Program-made: the position numbers and the translations under genes
In this document: positions 44,577-51,177 of the stretch, piece after piece
Position numbering within the stretch: the stretch's first letter is position 1
Layout: the number at the start of each line of letters is the position of its first letter
The notes under the pieces: model-generated
The model's input: the letters and a program-made list of their open reading frames with translations, nothing else
Told to the model about the DNA's origin: nothing
The model's database searches: none
Assembly: GCA_963762255.1 (NCBI GenBank)
Contig: CAVXKA010000001.1
Location: 640,001 to 704,000, forward strand
DNA length: 64,000 nucleotides
Source of the DNA: Candidatus Eiseniibacteriota bacterium
GTDB taxonomy: Bacteria; Eisenbacteria; RBG-16-71-46; JABDJR01
Direction of reading: 5' to 3'

Positions 44577-45251
44577 TTACCCCGGCTGCACCCCTCCGAG
44601 CACGCGAGCGTCCTCCTCACACCCTCCGCACCAGCGCACCATCTGCCGCGCCATGCGCCCCATCCCTTCCTCCATTTCGAGACGCGGGAAATCTCCGGGG
44701 GCGAAGATCACGGCGAGCGCTTCCGTGGTGCGCTCGCTCACGGAAGTGCGGGCGGAGTCGGAGGTGGGAGATCCGAAGGGGCCGTCATCATCGGCCACGG
44801 TGAGTCGCCCCGCCACGTGGACGGGCCCCTTGCGGATGCCCTCGTAGAACTCTCCGTCGCGCCCGACTCGCAGCACTACGTTGCCGCGCACCTGCGCGAG
44901 ATCGTAGAGCCCGATCGGCAGGAGCAGCGCGAGCGAGGACCAGTTGCAGGCGTCCACGAGCCGGTTGATGCGGTAGAGGGGTTCGCCCTTGAGCACGCGG
45001 CGGAGCAGCGCCTCCGACGACGGTCGCGCGCGGGTGGGGTCCACGCCGAAGGCTCGGTAGAGGCGCCGCGCGGGCTCGAGGCCGGGGATTTCGGAGGGAG
45101 CACGCCCCGCGAACGCGCGCCGGTACGTGACGCCAAGATCCTCGATCTCCGACCAGAACGAGTTCTCGTCGCCGACGCGAAGTCCGGACAGGCGCACGGC
45201 GCCGGCCAGGACACTCCGGGAAATCTCTTCATCGATCCGGAAGCTTGCCAT
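44577..45251 (-). CDS. Free-standing B3/4 (PheT editing-like) domain protein
   Basis: GVDPTRARPSSEALLRR, INRLVD and PIGLYD motifs. Confidence 0.88.
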   Translation of the reverse strand: MASFRIDEEISRSVLAGAVRLSGLRVGDENSFWSEIEDLGVTYRRAFAGRAPSEIPGLEPARRLYRAFGVDPTRARPSSEALLRRVLKGEPLYRINRLVDACNWSSLALLLPIGLYDLAQVRGNVVLRVGRDGEFYEGIRKGPVHVAGRLTVADDDGPFGSPTSDSARTSVSERTTEALAVIFAPGDFPRLEMEEGMGRMARQMVRWCGGCEEDARVLGGVQPG

Positions 45252-47317
45252 CACGGCTCTCCCACAGCGCGCGACGAAGGAAGGAAGCGGAACACGGTCG
45301 CCTCGGGGTTCCACCAGACGATCTCGAAGCGATCCGGCCGGCGGCCCATGAAGCTTGTGCCGGCGCGCGCGCTGCCGTGATCGCTGGTGCGCCACAACGC
45401 GTACAACGGCCCCACGTTTTCGGCGGCGAACGCATCGAGAGCGGCCAGTGTCGCCGTCGTGTCGACGGGGACGACGGGGGGGCGCGGATACCGCGAGTCC
45501 ACGTACACGCCCACGAGCGCGTCCCGCACGTCGCGACGGCGATTCATCTCCGCCGCCGGGTAGCCCCAGAAATGGGCGTAGGGCTCGCGTCCCCAGTACT
45601 GGCGGCGCGGCGCGAGCACGAGCACGTCGGCGCGCTCCTGCGAATCGATGAAGACCGCGTCGGGCGGCGTACGCTCGGCCATCCAGGCGTAGAGAGAACG
45701 CTCATCTAGGGAGATCGGGGCCGGAGCCTTCTGGAAGAGGTACACGGCGAGGTAGAGCGCCGACATGGGGACGCACATCGCAATGGGGATTGCCCACGCC
45801 CACATGCCATGGCCCCGGGCGCGGAGCGCTTTCCACCAACGCGCGAGCGTCCACCCCGCCGCGACGGCGGGGAAGAGGTAGAACACGAAGGGCATCTTGT
45901 CGGTGGTGTTGGTCGTGGGGAGCACGGTCCAGAGCGCCGCGATCATCATGCCCAAGGCCAGCCCCTGGAACACGCGGGCGCCCGGCCGCGCACCCAATCT
46001 CCAGAGCGCGGGACCGCCGAGGACGAGCGCCGCCGAGGATGCGATGAGGATTCCCGCCCACGCCGGCGACCACCCGATCGGGAAGGGGGCCCGGGTGCGG
46101 CCCACCGTGCTGAGGAAGATCGGCGCTGCCAACGCGCTGCCACACGCGAAAGCCATCGCGCCCATCACCACGAGACGCCGAGGCACCGCACCGGGACGAA
46201 CGAGCAGAAGGACCCCCGCAAGCAGCAACCCCAACCCACCGGCCCCGGCCAGTCCAGGATTCCATACCCACATGCCGAACGCAGCCAGAGCCACGCCCAC
46301 GAATCGGCGCGGGGACTCACCGGCGACTCGGGACGGCATCGACATGGACCGCGCCCAGCCCACGAGTCCCTCGCCGAGCCAGGCCAGAGACGTGACGGCG
46401 CCCCCGAACGCGGTCATCACCAGGTATTTGTTGAGAAAAGCAGGCGGGCTCCCGTAGAGAGACGTGAACGCCAGAACTTGATCAAAGGTGAACGGACGGA
46501 GCGAGAACAGACGGCGCAGTTCTCCCCAACCCGCGGTCTCCCCCACGAACGCGCGCGCAAGCTTCACACCGAATCCGAGGACGAAGAACGCATCGAGCCC
46601 GAGCGGCACGAAGAGAGCGGCGAAGAACGCCTCGCGGCCCGGCCGGCCCGCACCGCGCGAGAGCGCGTAGACCGCGCCGCCCAGCGAGACCAGCCAGAAC
46701 GTATTGAGGAGCCCGCCCAAGTCCCAGGCCGCCACACCCGCTGCCTCCGCCCACACCGCGAGCATCGCGTGATAGAACCAGACGTAGTTGAGAGAGAGCC
46801 CCGCGAAGTACGGATCGCCGGGAGGGACGCCGCGCGCTGCGATCTCGAAGACGACGGCGGTGTGGAACACCGCATCGCTGCGCATGCGTACCCAGGGACG
46901 AAGCGCATGCGGGAGGAGCGCGAGCGCAGCGAGAACGACGAGCCACACGATCAGCCGCCGCTCCCATCGCGGCATGGGGCCGCCGGGGCTGTGCCCGCGG
47001 AGCAGTGCTAGAAACCCGGCGGCATAGGCCGCGGCGAGACAGAGCTGCGCCGCGACGGAAACGGAGAGGCCTAGCGCGAGAAGCACGGTGGCGGCGGCCC
47101 CGGAAACGAGAGGACCGATGAAGAGCGCGCGTGCGATCACGAGCCAGCCGCGTGCGCCGCCGCCAAGCGCGCGGGAAACGGCGAATCCGGGAGCGAATCC
47201 GAGGCCCACCGCCGCGCCGAGCCAGCGCAACGGCACCGCGTCGAACGCAGCCCCGGCGATCCAGGCCGCCGCCCCGACCGCCAGAGGCGCGGCCCACGCC
47301 GTTCCGCGCCTCATCAC
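45251..47317 (-). CDS. Polytopic membrane protein, GT-C glycosyltransferase-like
   Basis: Many TM helices; DAVFH...PPGDPYFAG..LNYVWFYH; C-terminal W..ERTPPDAV. Confidence 0.6.
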   Translation of the reverse strand: MMRRGTAWAAPLAVGAAAWIAGAAFDAVPLRWLGAAVGLGFAPGFAVSRALGGGARGWLVIARALFIGPLVSGAAATVLLALGLSVSVAAQLCLAAAYAAGFLALLRGHSPGGPMPRWERRLIVWLVVLAALALLPHALRPWVRMRSDAVFHTAVVFEIAARGVPPGDPYFAGLSLNYVWFYHAMLAVWAEAAGVAAWDLGGLLNTFWLVSLGGAVYALSRGAGRPGREAFFAALFVPLGLDAFFVLGFGVKLARAFVGETAGWGELRRLFSLRPFTFDQVLAFTSLYGSPPAFLNKYLVMTAFGGAVTSLAWLGEGLVGWARSMSMPSRVAGESPRRFVGVALAAFGMWVWNPGLAGAGGLGLLLAGVLLLVRPGAVPRRLVVMGAMAFACGSALAAPIFLSTVGRTRAPFPIGWSPAWAGILIASSAALVLGGPALWRLGARPGARVFQGLALGMMIAALWTVLPTTNTTDKMPFVFYLFPAVAAGWTLARWWKALRARGHGMWAWAIPIAMCVPMSALYLAVYLFQKAPAPISLDERSLYAWMAERTPPDAVFIDSQERADVLVLAPRRQYWGREPYAHFWGYPAAEMNRRRDVRDALVGVYVDSRYPRPPVVPVDTTATLAALDAFAAENVGPLYALWRTSDHGSARAGTSFMGRRPDRFEIVWWNPEATVFRFLPSSRAVGEP

Positions 47318-47433
47318 GCCGCGTTCTTGGGGAGTACGCCGTTGACCTGCATAGGTGCCGCCAATACTATCGACTTGTCACGCGGCCTCCCAGGGCTTCT
47401 TTGCCCGGCCGGTCGCGGATGAGGGGACAATCC

Positions 47434-47901
47434 ATGGTTCGCGCAATCTCGGTCCTGCTCGCGGTTCTGGTACTGCTCGGAGTCGGCTGGTATCTCGGCC
47501 ATCGGCCGGTCGCGGCGATGAGAACCACGGCCACCGAACTCGAAGCGGCAACCGTTCGGCGCGCCCAGGACTTCGATGCGAAGGCGCGGGTCCTCGAGGA
47601 GCGCGTCGCCATCGCCGAGGCCAAGGGCCAGCTCTGGCGGGCGCGTGCCGATCTGCTCGTCGCCGCGGGAGACGTGGGGCAGAACAACTACGGCCTCGCC
47701 GCCGAGCGGGCATCGCGGGCCCGCGACCTCGTTACGGGCGCGCTCGCCGCACCGGGGTTCACGATGGACATAGGGGCCATACGCGACATGCTCGATTCGG
47801 CGATCGGCAAGATCGCCGCCCAGGACCGGGACGCCGGCGCCGTGCTCATCCGAGCCGCCACCGAGCTGGGTCGCTTGCTCGAACAGGCCGGCCAGGCCTG
47901 A
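47434..47901 (+). CDS. Membrane-anchored helical hypothetical protein
   Basis: GAGGGG RBS; N-terminal TM helix; coiled-coil character. Confidence 0.7.
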   Translation: MVRAISVLLAVLVLLGVGWYLGHRPVAAMRTTATELEAATVRRAQDFDAKARVLEERVAIAEAKGQLWRARADLLVAAGDVGQNNYGLAAERASRARDLVTGALAAPGFTMDIGAIRDMLDSAIGKIAAQDRDAGAVLIRAATELGRLLEQAGQA

Positions 47902-47945
47902 GCCTCACCCTTACCCCGCCGGGCGGACCGGCCTCGGGAGCTAGG

Positions 47946-48407
47946 TTGCGACTACTGGACTATCTGGATCCCGGCTGCATCGGAGTCGGCCTTCCCTCGG
48001 CGGGAAAACGCGAGACGCTCGCGCGGCTGGTCGATCTCGTGGTCGGGGGCGGGTTGGCGCAGGACAAGGCGCGGCTCCTGGAGGCCCTGGAACAGCGCGA
48101 GCAGGTGGTGTCCACGGGGGTCGGGAACGGCGTGGCGATCCCGCACGCGGATCTTCCGGAGATCGAGGCCCCGCGGCTCGCGCTGGGTCTGTTCCCGGAT
48201 GGCGTGGACTACGATTCGTTGGACGAGGAGCCGGTGTACATCGCGTTCGTGCTCTTGGGAACACCGCGCACACCCGGGCTCCACATGAAGATCCTCGCCC
48301 GCATCGCGCGGTTGAGCAAGGATCCGGACTTCTCGCCGGGGCTTCGCACTGCGAAGAGCCCCGCCGAGGTTTTGGCCGCCCTCGACGTGATCGAGTCGCG
48401 GCATTAG
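47946..48407 (+). CDS. PTS EIIA(Ntr/Fru)-like protein
   Basis: REQVVSTGVGNGVAIPHA and DYDSLDEEPV motifs. Confidence 0.88.
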   Translation: MRLLDYLDPGCIGVGLPSAGKRETLARLVDLVVGGGLAQDKARLLEALEQREQVVSTGVGNGVAIPHADLPEIEAPRLALGLFPDGVDYDSLDEEPVYIAFVLLGTPRTPGLHMKILARIARLSKDPDFSPGLRTAKSPAEVLAALDVIESRH

Positions 48408-48416
48408 GAGCGCGGG

Positions 48417-48758
48417 GTGAAACTATTCGTCTACGTGCTCAATCGACCGGAGAAACTCGAAGAGGTTCTCGCTGCGTTCGTGGAAATCGGCATCACCGGC
48501 GCGACCGTGGTGGACAGCGTGGGAATGGGCCGGATCATCGCGCAGGACGTGCCGATCTTCGCCAGCTTTCAATCGCTGTTGAGTGCGAGTCGTCCGTACA
48601 ACAAGACCATCCTCTCGGTCATCGACGACGAACCCAAACTCGAGCGCGCGCTGCGTCTGATCGAGGAGATCTGCGGGCCTTTCGGCTCGGCGGGGGCCGG
48701 CATCGCCCTGACGCTTCCCATCGAGCAGGCCTACGGCATCAAGCCCGAATTCAAGTGA
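48417..48758 (+). CDS. PII-like signalling protein
   Basis: GITGATVVDSVGMG...AGIALTLPIEQAYG. Confidence 0.8.
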   Translation: MKLFVYVLNRPEKLEEVLAAFVEIGITGATVVDSVGMGRIIAQDVPIFASFQSLLSASRPYNKTILSVIDDEPKLERALRLIEEICGPFGSAGAGIALTLPIEQAYGIKPEFK

Positions 48759-48764
48759 GGCACC

Positions 48765-49394
48765 ATGAACGACCGACATCACGACGCTCCTGAACACGGA
48801 CCTTCCTCCGGAGATGCCGCATCCAACCGCTTGAGCCGGTTCCTCGCTCTCGTGCTGCGCCATCGCGCCCATCAGTTCGATCTGGCTGTGGACGAGGAGG
48901 GCTTCGTCGCCTTGGATCCGCTCCTGGAAGTGATCCACTCGCAGTCCGGTCTCGATGGAGTCACCCGTGAGGACCTGGAACTTCTGACCCGCGAGGGAGA
49001 CCGCAAGCGCTACGAGATCCGGGGCGACTCCATGCGCGCCACCTACGGACACTCCTTCCGCCGCCCCATCCGCTATCCGGCGGTGGAGCCCCCCGAGCAC
49101 CTCTTCGTCGGCGTTGCCTCCGCACAGGTTCAGGAGGTTCGTCTGCACGGTCTTCGTCCGGAGGGGCGCCAGTACCTCCACCTCTCCGAGCGGGAGGATG
49201 AGGCTCGTGAGGTGGGAAGCCGGCGCAGCGGCGACGCCACCGTGGTTACGGTACTCGCCCTGGAAGCGTCCCAAAGTGGAATTCCATTCCACCGACCCAC
49301 TGACGGCCTCTATCTCGCTCTGCAACTCCCCGCGCGCTTCTTAGATTTGCAGGTGCAGTACGGCCGATCCCCGAAGAAAGGGCGCCGGCGCTAG
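48765..49394 (+). CDS. kptA: RNA 2'-phosphotransferase (Tpt1/KptA)
   Basis: LSRFL.LVLRH, RKRY, RATYGHS and YLHLS motifs. Confidence 0.88.
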   Translation: MNDRHHDAPEHGPSSGDAASNRLSRFLALVLRHRAHQFDLAVDEEGFVALDPLLEVIHSQSGLDGVTREDLELLTREGDRKRYEIRGDSMRATYGHSFRRPIRYPAVEPPEHLFVGVASAQVQEVRLHGLRPEGRQYLHLSEREDEAREVGSRRSGDATVVTVLALEASQSGIPFHRPTDGLYLALQLPARFLDLQVQYGRSPKKGRRR

Positions 49395-49539
49395 CCTCGC
49401 GTCCGCGGGCATGAACCTCGTTCCAGCCGGCGCCAGTCTCGCGTCCGCGGCCCTGGAATCGCCCCAATCGCTTTCTTGGATTTCCAGTTAACGTTTATTG
49501 AATTGGGACCGCGCGACCGCGATCGCCATACTCCCTGCG

Positions 49540-49840
49540 TTGTTGATGTGTGGGGTGGGGTGGGGTGAAACCCGGAGAGTAAACGTCTCCGGTCCCGGAC
49601 CTGACTCGCTGGGACGTACGCCAAATACGGTGGTAGCGGAAGCACTCGGCGTTCACGGAACGAACGGAGTGCGGTCCTCCGACTGGGGATGATGGGGGTT
49701 CGGCGCCCCGGCGAGGGTCCGGGTCTTTCGAAAGGAACGCTGGCCGCTTTCAGCAATCTCCCGAACAGCGCCCTCGGGTAGCCTCGGGAGGACCTTCGCC
49801 GGGCTTAGGCGAGGAAGCGCCGCGTTCCTTTCTGTTTTTT
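49540..49840 (+). ncRNA. Candidate structured ncRNA C with cloverleaf-like domain (unknown family)
   Basis: Hairpin 49574-49592; stem 49594-49610/49710-49723 enclosing four arms; 11-bp stem 49730-49740/49822-49832 followed by TGTTTTTT. Confidence 0.55.
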
Positions 49841-49984
49841 CAGCCCGATTCCCCTCCATCGCGCGGCCGGATGACTCATTGTCGATTTTGTAGTCTTTTG
49901 ATCAGCATTACGCCGCCGCTTCGTCTTGAACCAAATTATCTGAATATTGGAATTGAGTTAGCGGGATATTGGATTGGTGTGCCC

Positions 49985-50190
49985 CTGCCCGCCGGATCAT
50001 CATGCGGTCGGGTCGAGGAGAGACAGCCACGATCCCTGCGAGCCCTACGCCGGACTGACAGAGCGGACGCAGGAGTTCGGGACGCTCAGGAGCGAAGGCT
50101 CCTGAAAACGGGATGCATGGGGGTACCGTTCCGAACGGGATGCCGAGGAGATCTCGACGACCGGTCGGCCGCAAGGCCAAGGGCTCGCAA
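49985..50190 (+). ncRNA. Candidate structured ncRNA D (unknown family)
   Basis: 10-bp stem 50037-50046/50180-50189 enclosing GAAG and GCAA hairpins; own terminator. Confidence 0.5.
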
Positions 50191-50197
50191 AATCTTT

Positions 50198-50231
50198 GGG
50201 CTCCTCAGGAAACTGAGGAGCCCTTCTTTTT
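50198..50231 (+). terminator. Intrinsic terminator
   Basis: GGGCTCCTCAG-GAAA-CTGAGGAGCCC-TTCTTTTT. Confidence 0.9.
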
Positions 50232-50232
50232 G

Positions 50233-51177
50233 CTATGGATCGGCCGCGAGTTCCGGCGTGTGGCCTCGGCGGGACCCGGCCAGGACTTCCAGCGCCGCCG
50301 GCGCGAACTCCTGCTGCTGCGCCGAGCGAAGCGCCTGCTTGTATCCCTCGAGGATCTGATCCAACTGCGGGATCGCCCCCGGCAGGAGGATCGACGCCGA
50401 CTGCGCGAGCTTGGCCACGCCGCTGTCGTAGAAGCGCCAAGCCACGTGGCTCAGGTCGTTCATAAGTTCGTGAAAGGCGCGCGGAGCGCGGGTCAGACCG
50501 CGCATCTCGGCAAGCTGCGCGGCGGTGAGCCCGTGACGAGCGAGCAGATCTTCGGGGAAGCCCGCCGAGGCGCCGGCGGCATCGAGGTTGGAGAACACTT
50601 CGAGCATGCGGCGAACGATGAACGCGAACACCCCGGGATCGTGGGCGAGCTCCTCGATGTCGAGCTCGGCGGAGACGCGATAGCGACGCACTCCCGGTAC
50701 GGCGAGGATGATCCGCAGGAACACCCACGACTGCGAGACACCGATCACCCGGGCGCGCTCGATCAGACTTTGGAGGTCGGGGATCGGCTCCCCCCCCGCG
50801 ATTTCCATGAGCCCCTGCTGCATGCGCAGCCACGGTGTCATGGGAAGCCCGAATCGGGCCATGGCGTCGGCGAGGGCTACCTGATCGGGGTGAGCCGGAT
50901 CGGGGCGACCCTGGTGGCAGAGGCGAACCCCGTCGCTCCACGCGCGAATCTCGCGCAACGAACTCTCCAGCGATGCGGCGCGTCCGCGGGGGACGGGAAG
51001 GGTCTGGGGCCCGAGAACCCGCATGGAGACGTAGGCGGCATAGAAGGCGTTGCGGCGGCGGGGATCCTCGAGACGGCGCGCGGCGGCAAGGAATGGGGTC
51101 TGGATCGCCTCGAGCTGCCCTTCGCAGGTGCGATAGGCCTCGAGGATCTCCGGTGTGTACTCCAATCGAAGCGGCAC
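50233..51177 (-). CDS. Squalene/phytoene synthase-fold protein without DDxxD motifs
   Basis: EAYRTC...FLAAARRL...RRNAFYAAY, FPEDLLARHGLT and WRFYDSG resemble SQS/PSY. Confidence 0.6.
   Translation of the reverse strand: MPLRLEYTPEILEAYRTCEGQLEAIQTPFLAAARRLEDPRRRNAFYAAYVSMRVLGPQTLPVPRGRAASLESSLREIRAWSDGVRLCHQGRPDPAHPDQVALADAMARFGLPMTPWLRMQQGLMEIAGGEPIPDLQSLIERARVIGVSQSWVFLRIILAVPGVRRYRVSAELDIEELAHDPGVFAFIVRRMLEVFSNLDAAGASAGFPEDLLARHGLTAAQLAEMRGLTRAPRAFHELMNDLSHVAWRFYDSGVAKLAQSASILLPGAIPQLDQILEGYKQALRSAQQQEFAPAALEVLAGSRRGHTPELAADP

Follow-up and report, generated by a model that had tools for sequence, protein, structure and literature searches.

CsrB/CsrC and RsmY/RsmZ are paired, paralogous bacterial small RNAs (sRNAs) that titrate a partner, and the raiA motif, ROOL, GOLLD and OLE are orphan large structured bacterial non-coding RNAs (ncRNAs) that came out of comparative genomics. 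YrlA RNAs are described as tRNA-like in the account of one report, which also gives GNCGAAN0-1G as the motif of the Ro60-binding stem of Y RNA (PMC4201824). The locus presented here, which shares features with each of these, lies in a 64,000-nucleotide (nt) stretch of a Candidatus Eisenbacteria genome that was analysed as a whole and is called the window below. Between a Tpt1/KptA gene (48765-49394, + strand; PF01885, E 3.8e-24) and an opposite-strand squalene/phytoene-synthase-family gene is an 840-nt gap holding a region that a first-pass annotation, made from the letters of the DNA, had read as a novel tRNA-mimic RNA. We find that 49539-49842 (+), here called RNA1, is an independently transcribed, non-coding, structured sRNA gene of ~300 nt, and that RNA1 and a downstream sister gene, RNA2, are a tandem pair of paralogous RNA genes limited to two genera of one Candidatus Eisenbacteria family. 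RNA1/RNA2 is a genuine ncRNA family, narrow in range and not catalogued before; a literature search pairing Eisenbacteria with RNA terms found no earlier description.

The locus resembles the CsrB/RsmZ type in that its two sRNA genes are related, have similar promoters and are transcribed separately; it also has a short motif in variable copy number, a fast-evolving interior on a stable scaffold, and terminator-like 3' ends. It differs in its motif, which is GUGGG/GGGUGG rather than GGA in hairpin loops, in the two large closed domains of RNA1, and in the lack of both a detected CsrA gene and an Rfam match. Like raiA, ROOL, GOLLD and OLE, RNA1 is intergenic, has its own promoter and a multi-junction fold supported by covariation, and has a function that its neighbors do not disclose; unlike them it is smaller, occurs in two genera only, has a largely unconserved interior, and matches no Rfam family. 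With YrlA, as that RNA is portrayed in one source, it shares the form of a modular ncRNA of a few hundred nt adjoining an RNA-metabolism gene, a T-arm-like hairpin in some RNA1 copies, and a second related RNA alongside, RNA2 beside RNA1 as YrlB beside YrlA (PMC4201824). RNA1 differs in that no Ro60/TROVE gene was found in the 6 carrier genomes, Rfam gives no Y-RNA match, the T-arm-like hairpin is not conserved, and GNCGAAN0-1G, missing from the window, varies in place among the other homologues.

Read 5' to 3', RNA1 comprises a G-rich leader, a 5' hairpin, a long-stemmed domain with a variable G-rich tip, and a 3' accessory three-way-junction domain. Direct reading of 48600-50400 located all of the sequence elements that the first-pass annotation had named, each where it had been placed, and the features of RNA1 are as follows.

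49539..49571, + strand: G-rich 5' leader with (GUGGG) x 3.6 at 49550-49567, its probable start set from the -10 element
49572..49592, + strand: 5' hairpin H0, CCGGAGA (49572-78) with UCUCCGG (49586-92), loop variable
49594..49723, + strand: domain 1, with P1, P1b and inner hairpins at 49619-32 and 49642-72
49594-602 with 49715-723, + strand: P1, closing stem of domain 1, including CCCGGACC (49594-601) and GGUCCGGG (49716-23)
49605-10 with 49710-15, + strand: P1b, extension of P1, CUCGCU with GGCGAG
49695..49709, + strand: T-arm-like hairpin, present as sequence, GGGG (49695-98), UUCGGCG, CCCC (49706-09)
49730..49832, + strand: domain 2, a three-way junction closed by P5
49730-40 with 49822-32, + strand: P5, GAAAGGAACGC with GCGUUCCUUUC
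49742-51 with 49813-21, + strand: P6, stem of domain 2
49758-90, + strand: P7, arm of domain 2
49796-812, + strand: P8, arm of domain 2
49836..49841, + strand: U-tract (T6 in the DNA) after P5, read from sequence

RNA1 thereby shows the generic features of an sRNA gene, namely a promoter, non-coding character, conserved structure and a 3' terminator, with its transcript ends placed by inference. The case rests on comparison with relatives, because the single-sequence statistics are unimpressive: folding energy on the + strand is unremarkable (z = -1.36, with 8 of 100 shuffles folding equally well; the - strand gives z = -3.56), and a consensus promoter scan called nothing at 49503-49532, where the site matches 8/12 against a threshold of 9/12. 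RNA1 has homologues at seven loci besides the window, making 8 sequences in two genera, the window's own (g1, with the window genome and G001) and a second carrier genus (g4). In a MAFFT alignment of these sequences, about six of which are distinct and all of which come from one family, the 26 pairs of H0, P1 and P5 are paired in 98.6% of cells, and both partners have changed in 8 of them, a count that comes to 2.1 +/- 1.0 in shuffles (0/500 reach 8). As a control, sliding the 3' partner by 1-3 columns left only 28-65% of cells paired. The six pairs of H0 are 100% paired in the 8 sequences and include one compensatory change from A-U to G-C, which bears out the CCGGAGA/UCUCCGG hairpin noticed earlier. 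The nine pairs of P1 are also 100% paired, four of them changed on both sides, and the species variants CCCGGACC, CCCGGGCC, CCCGAGUCC and CCCGGACUC each come with a complementary partner. P1b has pair probabilities of 0.83-1.0 and is predicted in every homologue, though its sequence differs by lineage, and the leader keeps an unvarying core of GGG..GGGUGG..AA throughout the alignment. Conservation of the arms in homologues was the test that the first-pass annotation had set, and the closing stems are indeed kept with compensatory changes across the 8 sequences.

Domain 2 gives a similar picture. The junction that had been proposed there, closed by GAAAGGAACGC/GCGUUCCUUUC, is retained as a fold in the window and in all six g4 sequences, which score 55.7 bits and 84.7-114.8 bits, respectively, with the domain 2 model (R2). 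In an alignment of these 7 sequences fitted to that model, its 35 pairs are paired in 90.1% of cells, and both partners have changed in 6 of them, where shuffles give 2.8 (9/500 as high). One loop of domain 2 is kept as GGGCAAAG or GGGCUUA.

Among the genomes searched, RNA1 is limited to two genera, because the strong matches of BLAST, R2 and the RNA2 model (R3) come from g1 and g4 alone. Of 41 related genomes, BLAST with a 311-nt region matched two, that of the window and G001, and a first covariance model added G006 of g4, bringing the matches to 3 of the 10 genomes of the order. With RNA2 as the anchor, BLAST over 206 class genomes gave 5 strong matches and recovered all four g4 genomes, and a 20-letter pattern from the RNA2 core found 5 loci from 4 metagenome-assembled genomes plus 2 metagenome contigs; RNA1 sits just 5' of RNA2 at each of these loci. 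R2 was strong in only 5 of 151 class genomes (the window's and 4/4 of g4), and R3 matched 5/151 class-level and 5/151 phylum-level genomes, again only the window's and 4/4 of g4. The weak R2 matches in G168 and G203 (E ~0.005 among 151 genomes) belong to a level at which ~0.8 are expected by chance, and 22 weak RNA2 BLAST matches (20-36 nt, E 7e-4 to 0.0097) were taken as chance, none being confirmed by R3 in the 151 sampled genomes. Two other genera of the same family, g2 (G002, 88% complete) and g3 (G003, 100% complete), gave no RNA match; exact-pattern scans of viral contigs returned 0 and 0, and blastn against plasmids and phages returned no match. In G006 the entire RNA1-RNA2 locus is present on two contigs with identical scores, C1:19247-19918 (L005) and C6:87715-88386 (L006), which may be a true duplication or assembly redundancy.

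Wherever the DNA extends far enough, RNA1 is followed by RNA2, which comprises two features in the window.

49966..50003, + strand: RNA2 promoter, with ATTGGATTGG, -35-like TTGGTG (49974-79), an 18-nt spacer and CATCAT (49998-50003)
50010..50232, + strand: RNA2; 5' hairpin, long-range closing stem, multi-branched core, terminator (50198-50232)

Its 5' hairpin is followed directly by the long-range closing stem, and its five-branched core includes ~100 nt that are identical between the two genera. The 62 pairs of RNA2 are formed in 93.8% of cells, and both partners have changed in 8 of them, where shuffles give 2.6 (1/500). A four-base loop of the GNRA class is GCAA in most sequences, with GAAA in G004. 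RNA2 has no Rfam match, and the idea that its core resembles the 5' end of a tmRNA was rejected when BLAST against the genome's own tmRNA gave 7-8-nt words only. RNA1 minus domain 2 has the same plan as RNA2, and the 5' modules of the two genes are alike in sequence, scoring 16-19 against 7 +/- 1.4 in shuffles (0/500 as high) in G005, G006 and M55, three of the five tested. The likeness is reached by 7/500 shuffles in G004 and by 151/500 in the window, which indicates that it has eroded in g1. The 5' module pattern occurs only at RNA1 and RNA2 in each genome, bar one extra site in G006. By this comparison of sequences, RNA1 is thus the fast-evolving member of a duplicated pair.

The region 5' of RNA1 holds two further conserved features.

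49472..49509, + strand: upstream block, with the near-palindrome TGGATTTCCA (49477-49486) and the AT-rich ATTGAATTGG element
49503..49532, + strand: RNA1 promoter, -35-like TTGGGA (49503-49508), an 18-nt spacer and -10-like CATACT (49527-49532)

The upstream block is the same in the window and G001, letter for letter, and an ATTGRATTRGG element is present in 8/8 homologues. The window has 3 copies of the shorter pattern TTGRATTGG, where 0.33 are expected (0/100 shuffles reach 3), and the genome has 18, with the extended context at the two RNA genes only. The possible promoter of the first-pass annotation, TTGGGA-18-CATACT at 49503/49527, is upheld by the 8 homologues, in which its position and 18-nt spacing are kept and g4 carries TTGGGC or TTAGGC as the -35-like element and GATAAT as the -10-like element. 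The same promoter design precedes RNA2, and this design is not common to the tmRNA, RNase P RNA or 6S genes of the same genome. Those genes lie outside the window: the tmRNA on contig C3 (173 bits), a single RNase P RNA, and two 6S RNAs above the Rfam cut-off, at G000 C2:243811-243989 (87.3 bits) and C1:103435-103588 (49.6 bits). The near-palindrome TGGATTTCCA, ~20 nt 5' of the -35 element, could be a binding site for a regulator; the equivalent position in g4 has GTGGAATTCC-like sequences.

The + strand is the RNA strand, because the G-U pairs in the helices are compatible with it alone and because the pair 49646/49668, in the hairpin at 49642-72, is U-A in the window, U.G in G001 and run X1, and C-G in runs X16 and X17, a path that fits the + strand only. 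R2 gives ~30 bits on the minus strand versus 85-115 bits on the + strand. Four open reading frames (ORFs) of 53-121 amino acids, one on the + strand and three on the minus strand, overlap the region and raise the alternative of a small protein from ORF 49498-49692 (+) or from one of the three on the minus strand. Yet all four are split across frames in G001, within the same genus, no significant counterpart of any of them turns up in g4 (best E 0.009), neither of the two scanned (49498-49692, +, and 49391-49756, -) belongs to a Pfam family, and the substitutions track base pairing. The frame shift in G001 and the missing g4 match mean that ORF 49498-49692 is not the conserved feature, in line with the earlier preference for an ncRNA over this frame, and we give a protein product next to no credence. 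RNA-library contigs are suggestive of expression of both genes: a 220-nt contig (X16) lies wholly within RNA1 (49594-49813) and a 155-nt contig (X15) wholly within RNA2 (50028-50173), in metatranscriptome libraries from different studies. The promoter region and the RNA1-RNA2 spacer are uncovered in these two, an absence that carries no weight, and RNA runs X18-X20 contain small shares of the stretch. Fourteen DNA runs contain 0.37-0.58 of the sampled words.

Inside its conserved frame, RNA1 turns over extensively. The domain 1 interior ranges in length between 123 and 160 nt, and little of it can be aligned between the two genera except the central hairpin. In the relative represented by X17, the whole of 49729-49866, comprising domain 2 and the terminator, is swapped for 29 unrelated letters, and in G001 (L002, minus strand, 1-60) the 3' module is shorter than and different from that of the window. 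The U-tract reported in the first pass does follow the P5 stem in the window, where 49836-49841 is likely an intrinsic terminator by its sequence, but g4 has no clean U-tract at the corresponding RNA1 3' end.

The earlier proposal makes RNA1 a tRNA mimic, and it can be widened to a Y-RNA-like molecule or to a client or decoy that the adjacent Tpt1/KptA would recognize by a T-arm-like element. In its favor are the position of Tpt1, directly 5' of RNA1 in 7/8 loci, the GGGG-UUCGGCG-CCCC element of the window, and hairpins that fit the canonical T-loop letter pattern, used here for comparison, in the variable arm of domain 2 in 3/8 sequences (G005, G007 and M54). Tentative support also comes from the published accounts of YrlA as tRNA-like (PMC4201824) and of archaeal KptA as acting on the 2'-phosphate of tRNA U47, which it removes (PMC9095486), as far as those sources go. 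However, the T-arm-like hairpin is predicted to pair with a probability of 0.003-0.004; in the ensemble its CCCC pairs in P1b and its GGGG in an alternative hairpin, and forcing it to form yields the proposed five-way junction at a cost, relative to the minimum free energy, of 2.7 kcal/mol in the window and 10.5 kcal/mol in G001. The arm is restricted to g1, without a counterpart in g4, so that the five-way junction is both disfavored energetically and absent from the second genus. The T-loop-like hairpins of the other sequences stand in a different domain from the window's element and are missing in the window, G004, G006 and M55. ARAGORN found 0 tRNA or tmRNA genes in the window, and Rfam at gathering thresholds gave 0 matches over its entire length (4227 families). 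The cmscan check suggested in the first pass for YrlA, transfer-messenger RNA (tmRNA) and signal recognition particle (SRP) models, like its relaxed tRNA search, came back empty: at E <= 10 over 49300-50350 there is no likeness to tRNA, Y RNA, tmRNA or SRP RNA, and at E <= 1 over four g4 loci none to the same classes, with one sub-threshold sraL match on a terminator. Five chance-level matches at E <= 10 were set aside (mir-9791, a trypanosomatid small nucleolar RNA, BjrC68 on the RNA2 terminator, U7, and a long non-coding RNA).

Ro60/TROVE (PF05731) has 0 matches in the window's genome and was found in 0/5 other carrier genomes, with positive controls in Deinococcus and Bacteroides, which extends the earlier remark that the window has no Ro60 gene to 0/6 carriers. 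The genome search that had been recommended for rsr and rtcB therefore divides, with Ro60 (rsr) not found in the 6 carriers and RtcB present in the genome, ~480 kb away. GNCGAAN0-1G does not occur in the window and has 1-2 copies in the other seven sequences, where its places are not equivalent: G001 has it in the inner hairpin and g4 at the junction of domain 2. Tpt1 itself occurs without such an RNA in G002 and G003 and lies 10.4 kb from the RNA pair in G004. We reject tRNA-like or Y-RNA membership because ARAGORN, Rfam, the pair probability, the absence of the arm from g4 and the lack of Ro60 all speak against it; the proposal is largely refuted by lack of conservation, and we consider it highly improbable. 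The first-pass observation thus stands for the ncRNA gene, its promoter, hairpin, closing stems and domain 2, and falls for the five-way junction with its T-arm-like arm. The interpretation survives as a novel structured ncRNA with promoter and terminator, and not as a novel tRNA mimic or a Y-RNA-like molecule, although its statement that RNA1 is not a tRNA, having neither a CCA end nor a canonical T-loop A, agrees with a 3' end made of a stem and a U-rich tail and with the absence of the canonical loop pattern from the window.

RNA1 begins about 145 nt beyond the Tpt1 stop codon, on the same strand, just downstream as the first-pass annotation had placed it, and the Tpt1-RNA1-RNA2 block is kept in 7/8 loci; the genes outside the block differ by genus. 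In the exception, G004, an OmpA-family gene precedes RNA1. This adjacency fits inherited local synteny, because Tpt1 occurs without the RNA in G002 and G003, is separated from it in G004, and has differing outer neighbors. Close, co-directional spacing would also be compatible with RNA1 being part of the Tpt1 transcript and acting in cis, for example as a structured 3' untranslated region, a terminator or a stabilizer, and a 978-nt RNA-library contig (X17) runs from upstream sequence through RNA1 into RNA2. A contig spanning two genes does not establish one transcript, however, and the promoter-like block between Tpt1 and RNA1 is conserved in all 8 loci, including the one in which RNA1 stands behind the OmpA-family gene; given that G002 and G003 carry Tpt1 without such an element, we consider the cis-element explanation improbable. 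A further version makes RNA1 and RNA2 natural clients of Tpt1/KptA, which would remove or add a mark on them, either a 2'-phosphate at an internal position or ADP-ribose at the 5' end. If true, a bacterial Tpt1 would have a dedicated substrate in genetic linkage with it, but we hold this version to be very doubtful.

In the window, Tpt1 is the last of three tightly spaced co-directional genes at 47355-49394 (+), after those for a PTS EIIA-2 domain protein and a P-II-like protein; in G006 a Na+/H+ exchanger fragment precedes Tpt1 in place of the latter two. A 688-amino-acid ORF at 45251-47317 (-) has no Pfam family at E <= 0.01.

The one compositional feature to outlast the turnover of the interior is repetition of G-rich pentamers. 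RNA composition is 37-43% G and 22-27% C, with G above C by 10-20 points; a tandem-repeat search finds the GUGGG leader repeat 3.6 times in the window, and, judged against dinucleotide shuffles, GGGUGG has 5-6 copies against ~1.0 expected in G005, G007 and M55 (P <= 0.002) and 2 against 0.35 in the window (P 0.047). In G005 the tip of domain 1 (L020 1204-1242) is a degenerate tandem array with a 15-nt period repeated 2.6 times, which suggests growth by slippage. A leader G-quadruplex was considered and dropped, since by eye there are three G-runs, not four. We favor, at a probability of roughly 0.45, the explanation that RNA1 belongs to a pair of structured sRNA genes and acts in trans as a regulatory RNA, titrating a partner through its G-rich repeats, with no tRNA mimicry involved. 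In this mechanism the stable stems would be a nuclease-resistant scaffold, and the working parts would be the GUGGG/GGGUGG repeats exposed in the leader and the domain 1 tip. The repeats would bind and titrate an RNA-binding protein or a C-rich RNA, and RNA1 would be co-regulated with RNA2 through their common promoter design. That RNA1 binds and titrates a partner, a step held with moderate-to-low confidence, is proposed by analogy, since a variable-number motif on a stable scaffold, co-regulated paralogues and fast interior turnover are typical of known titrating RNAs.

Several observations weigh against this explanation or the evidence behind it. CsrA is the classic target of sponge RNAs, and CsrA (PF02599) has 0 matches in the genome, which is 93.6% complete. 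The leader has 31 perfectly complementary sites of 11-14 nt, none standing out and none with an evident link to gene starts; the unpaired probability of its motif is mixed, at 0.01-0.88 across 6 homologues; and repeat enrichment is weak in the window, at the P value just given, and in G006 (P 0.089). Because so few distinct sequences from a single family underlie them, the covariation statistics are modest; those of domain 2 lean toward structure because its alignment was fitted to a structural model, and the RNA-library contigs carry no ends or strand and come from libraries in which DNA may be present. The unvarying core of RNA2 also suggests that a folded core, instead of exposed repeats, could be the working part. 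The strongest competing explanation builds on this point: RNA1, like RNA2, would be a structural or catalytic RNA or a ribonucleoprotein component whose folded core does the work, as a scaffold for a ligand or protein or as a ribozyme. Both RNAs are multi-helix molecules closed by long-range stems, the RNA2 core is unvarying over ~100 nt between genera even at paired positions, RNA2 keeps its GCAA/GAAA loop, and domain 2 of RNA1 keeps its GGGCAAAG or GGGCUUA loop. Against this, the 123-160 nt of the RNA1 domain 1 interior are nearly all different between genera, and domain 2 has given way to 29 letters in one relative and is not the same in G001; such turnover would not be expected of a catalytic core, and a folded working core is therefore unlikely for RNA1, if the most serious competitor to trans-acting titration.

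The interest of the finding is limited by the family's confinement to two genera, and the idea of a tRNA mimic tied to Tpt1 fails against the relatives. What is new is a pair of structured RNA genes from a candidate phylum without a cultured member. In this pair, one scaffold, a 5' hairpin followed by a long-range stem, was duplicated and then diverged into a copy with an unvarying core and a fast, repeat-rich copy with a swappable 3' domain.

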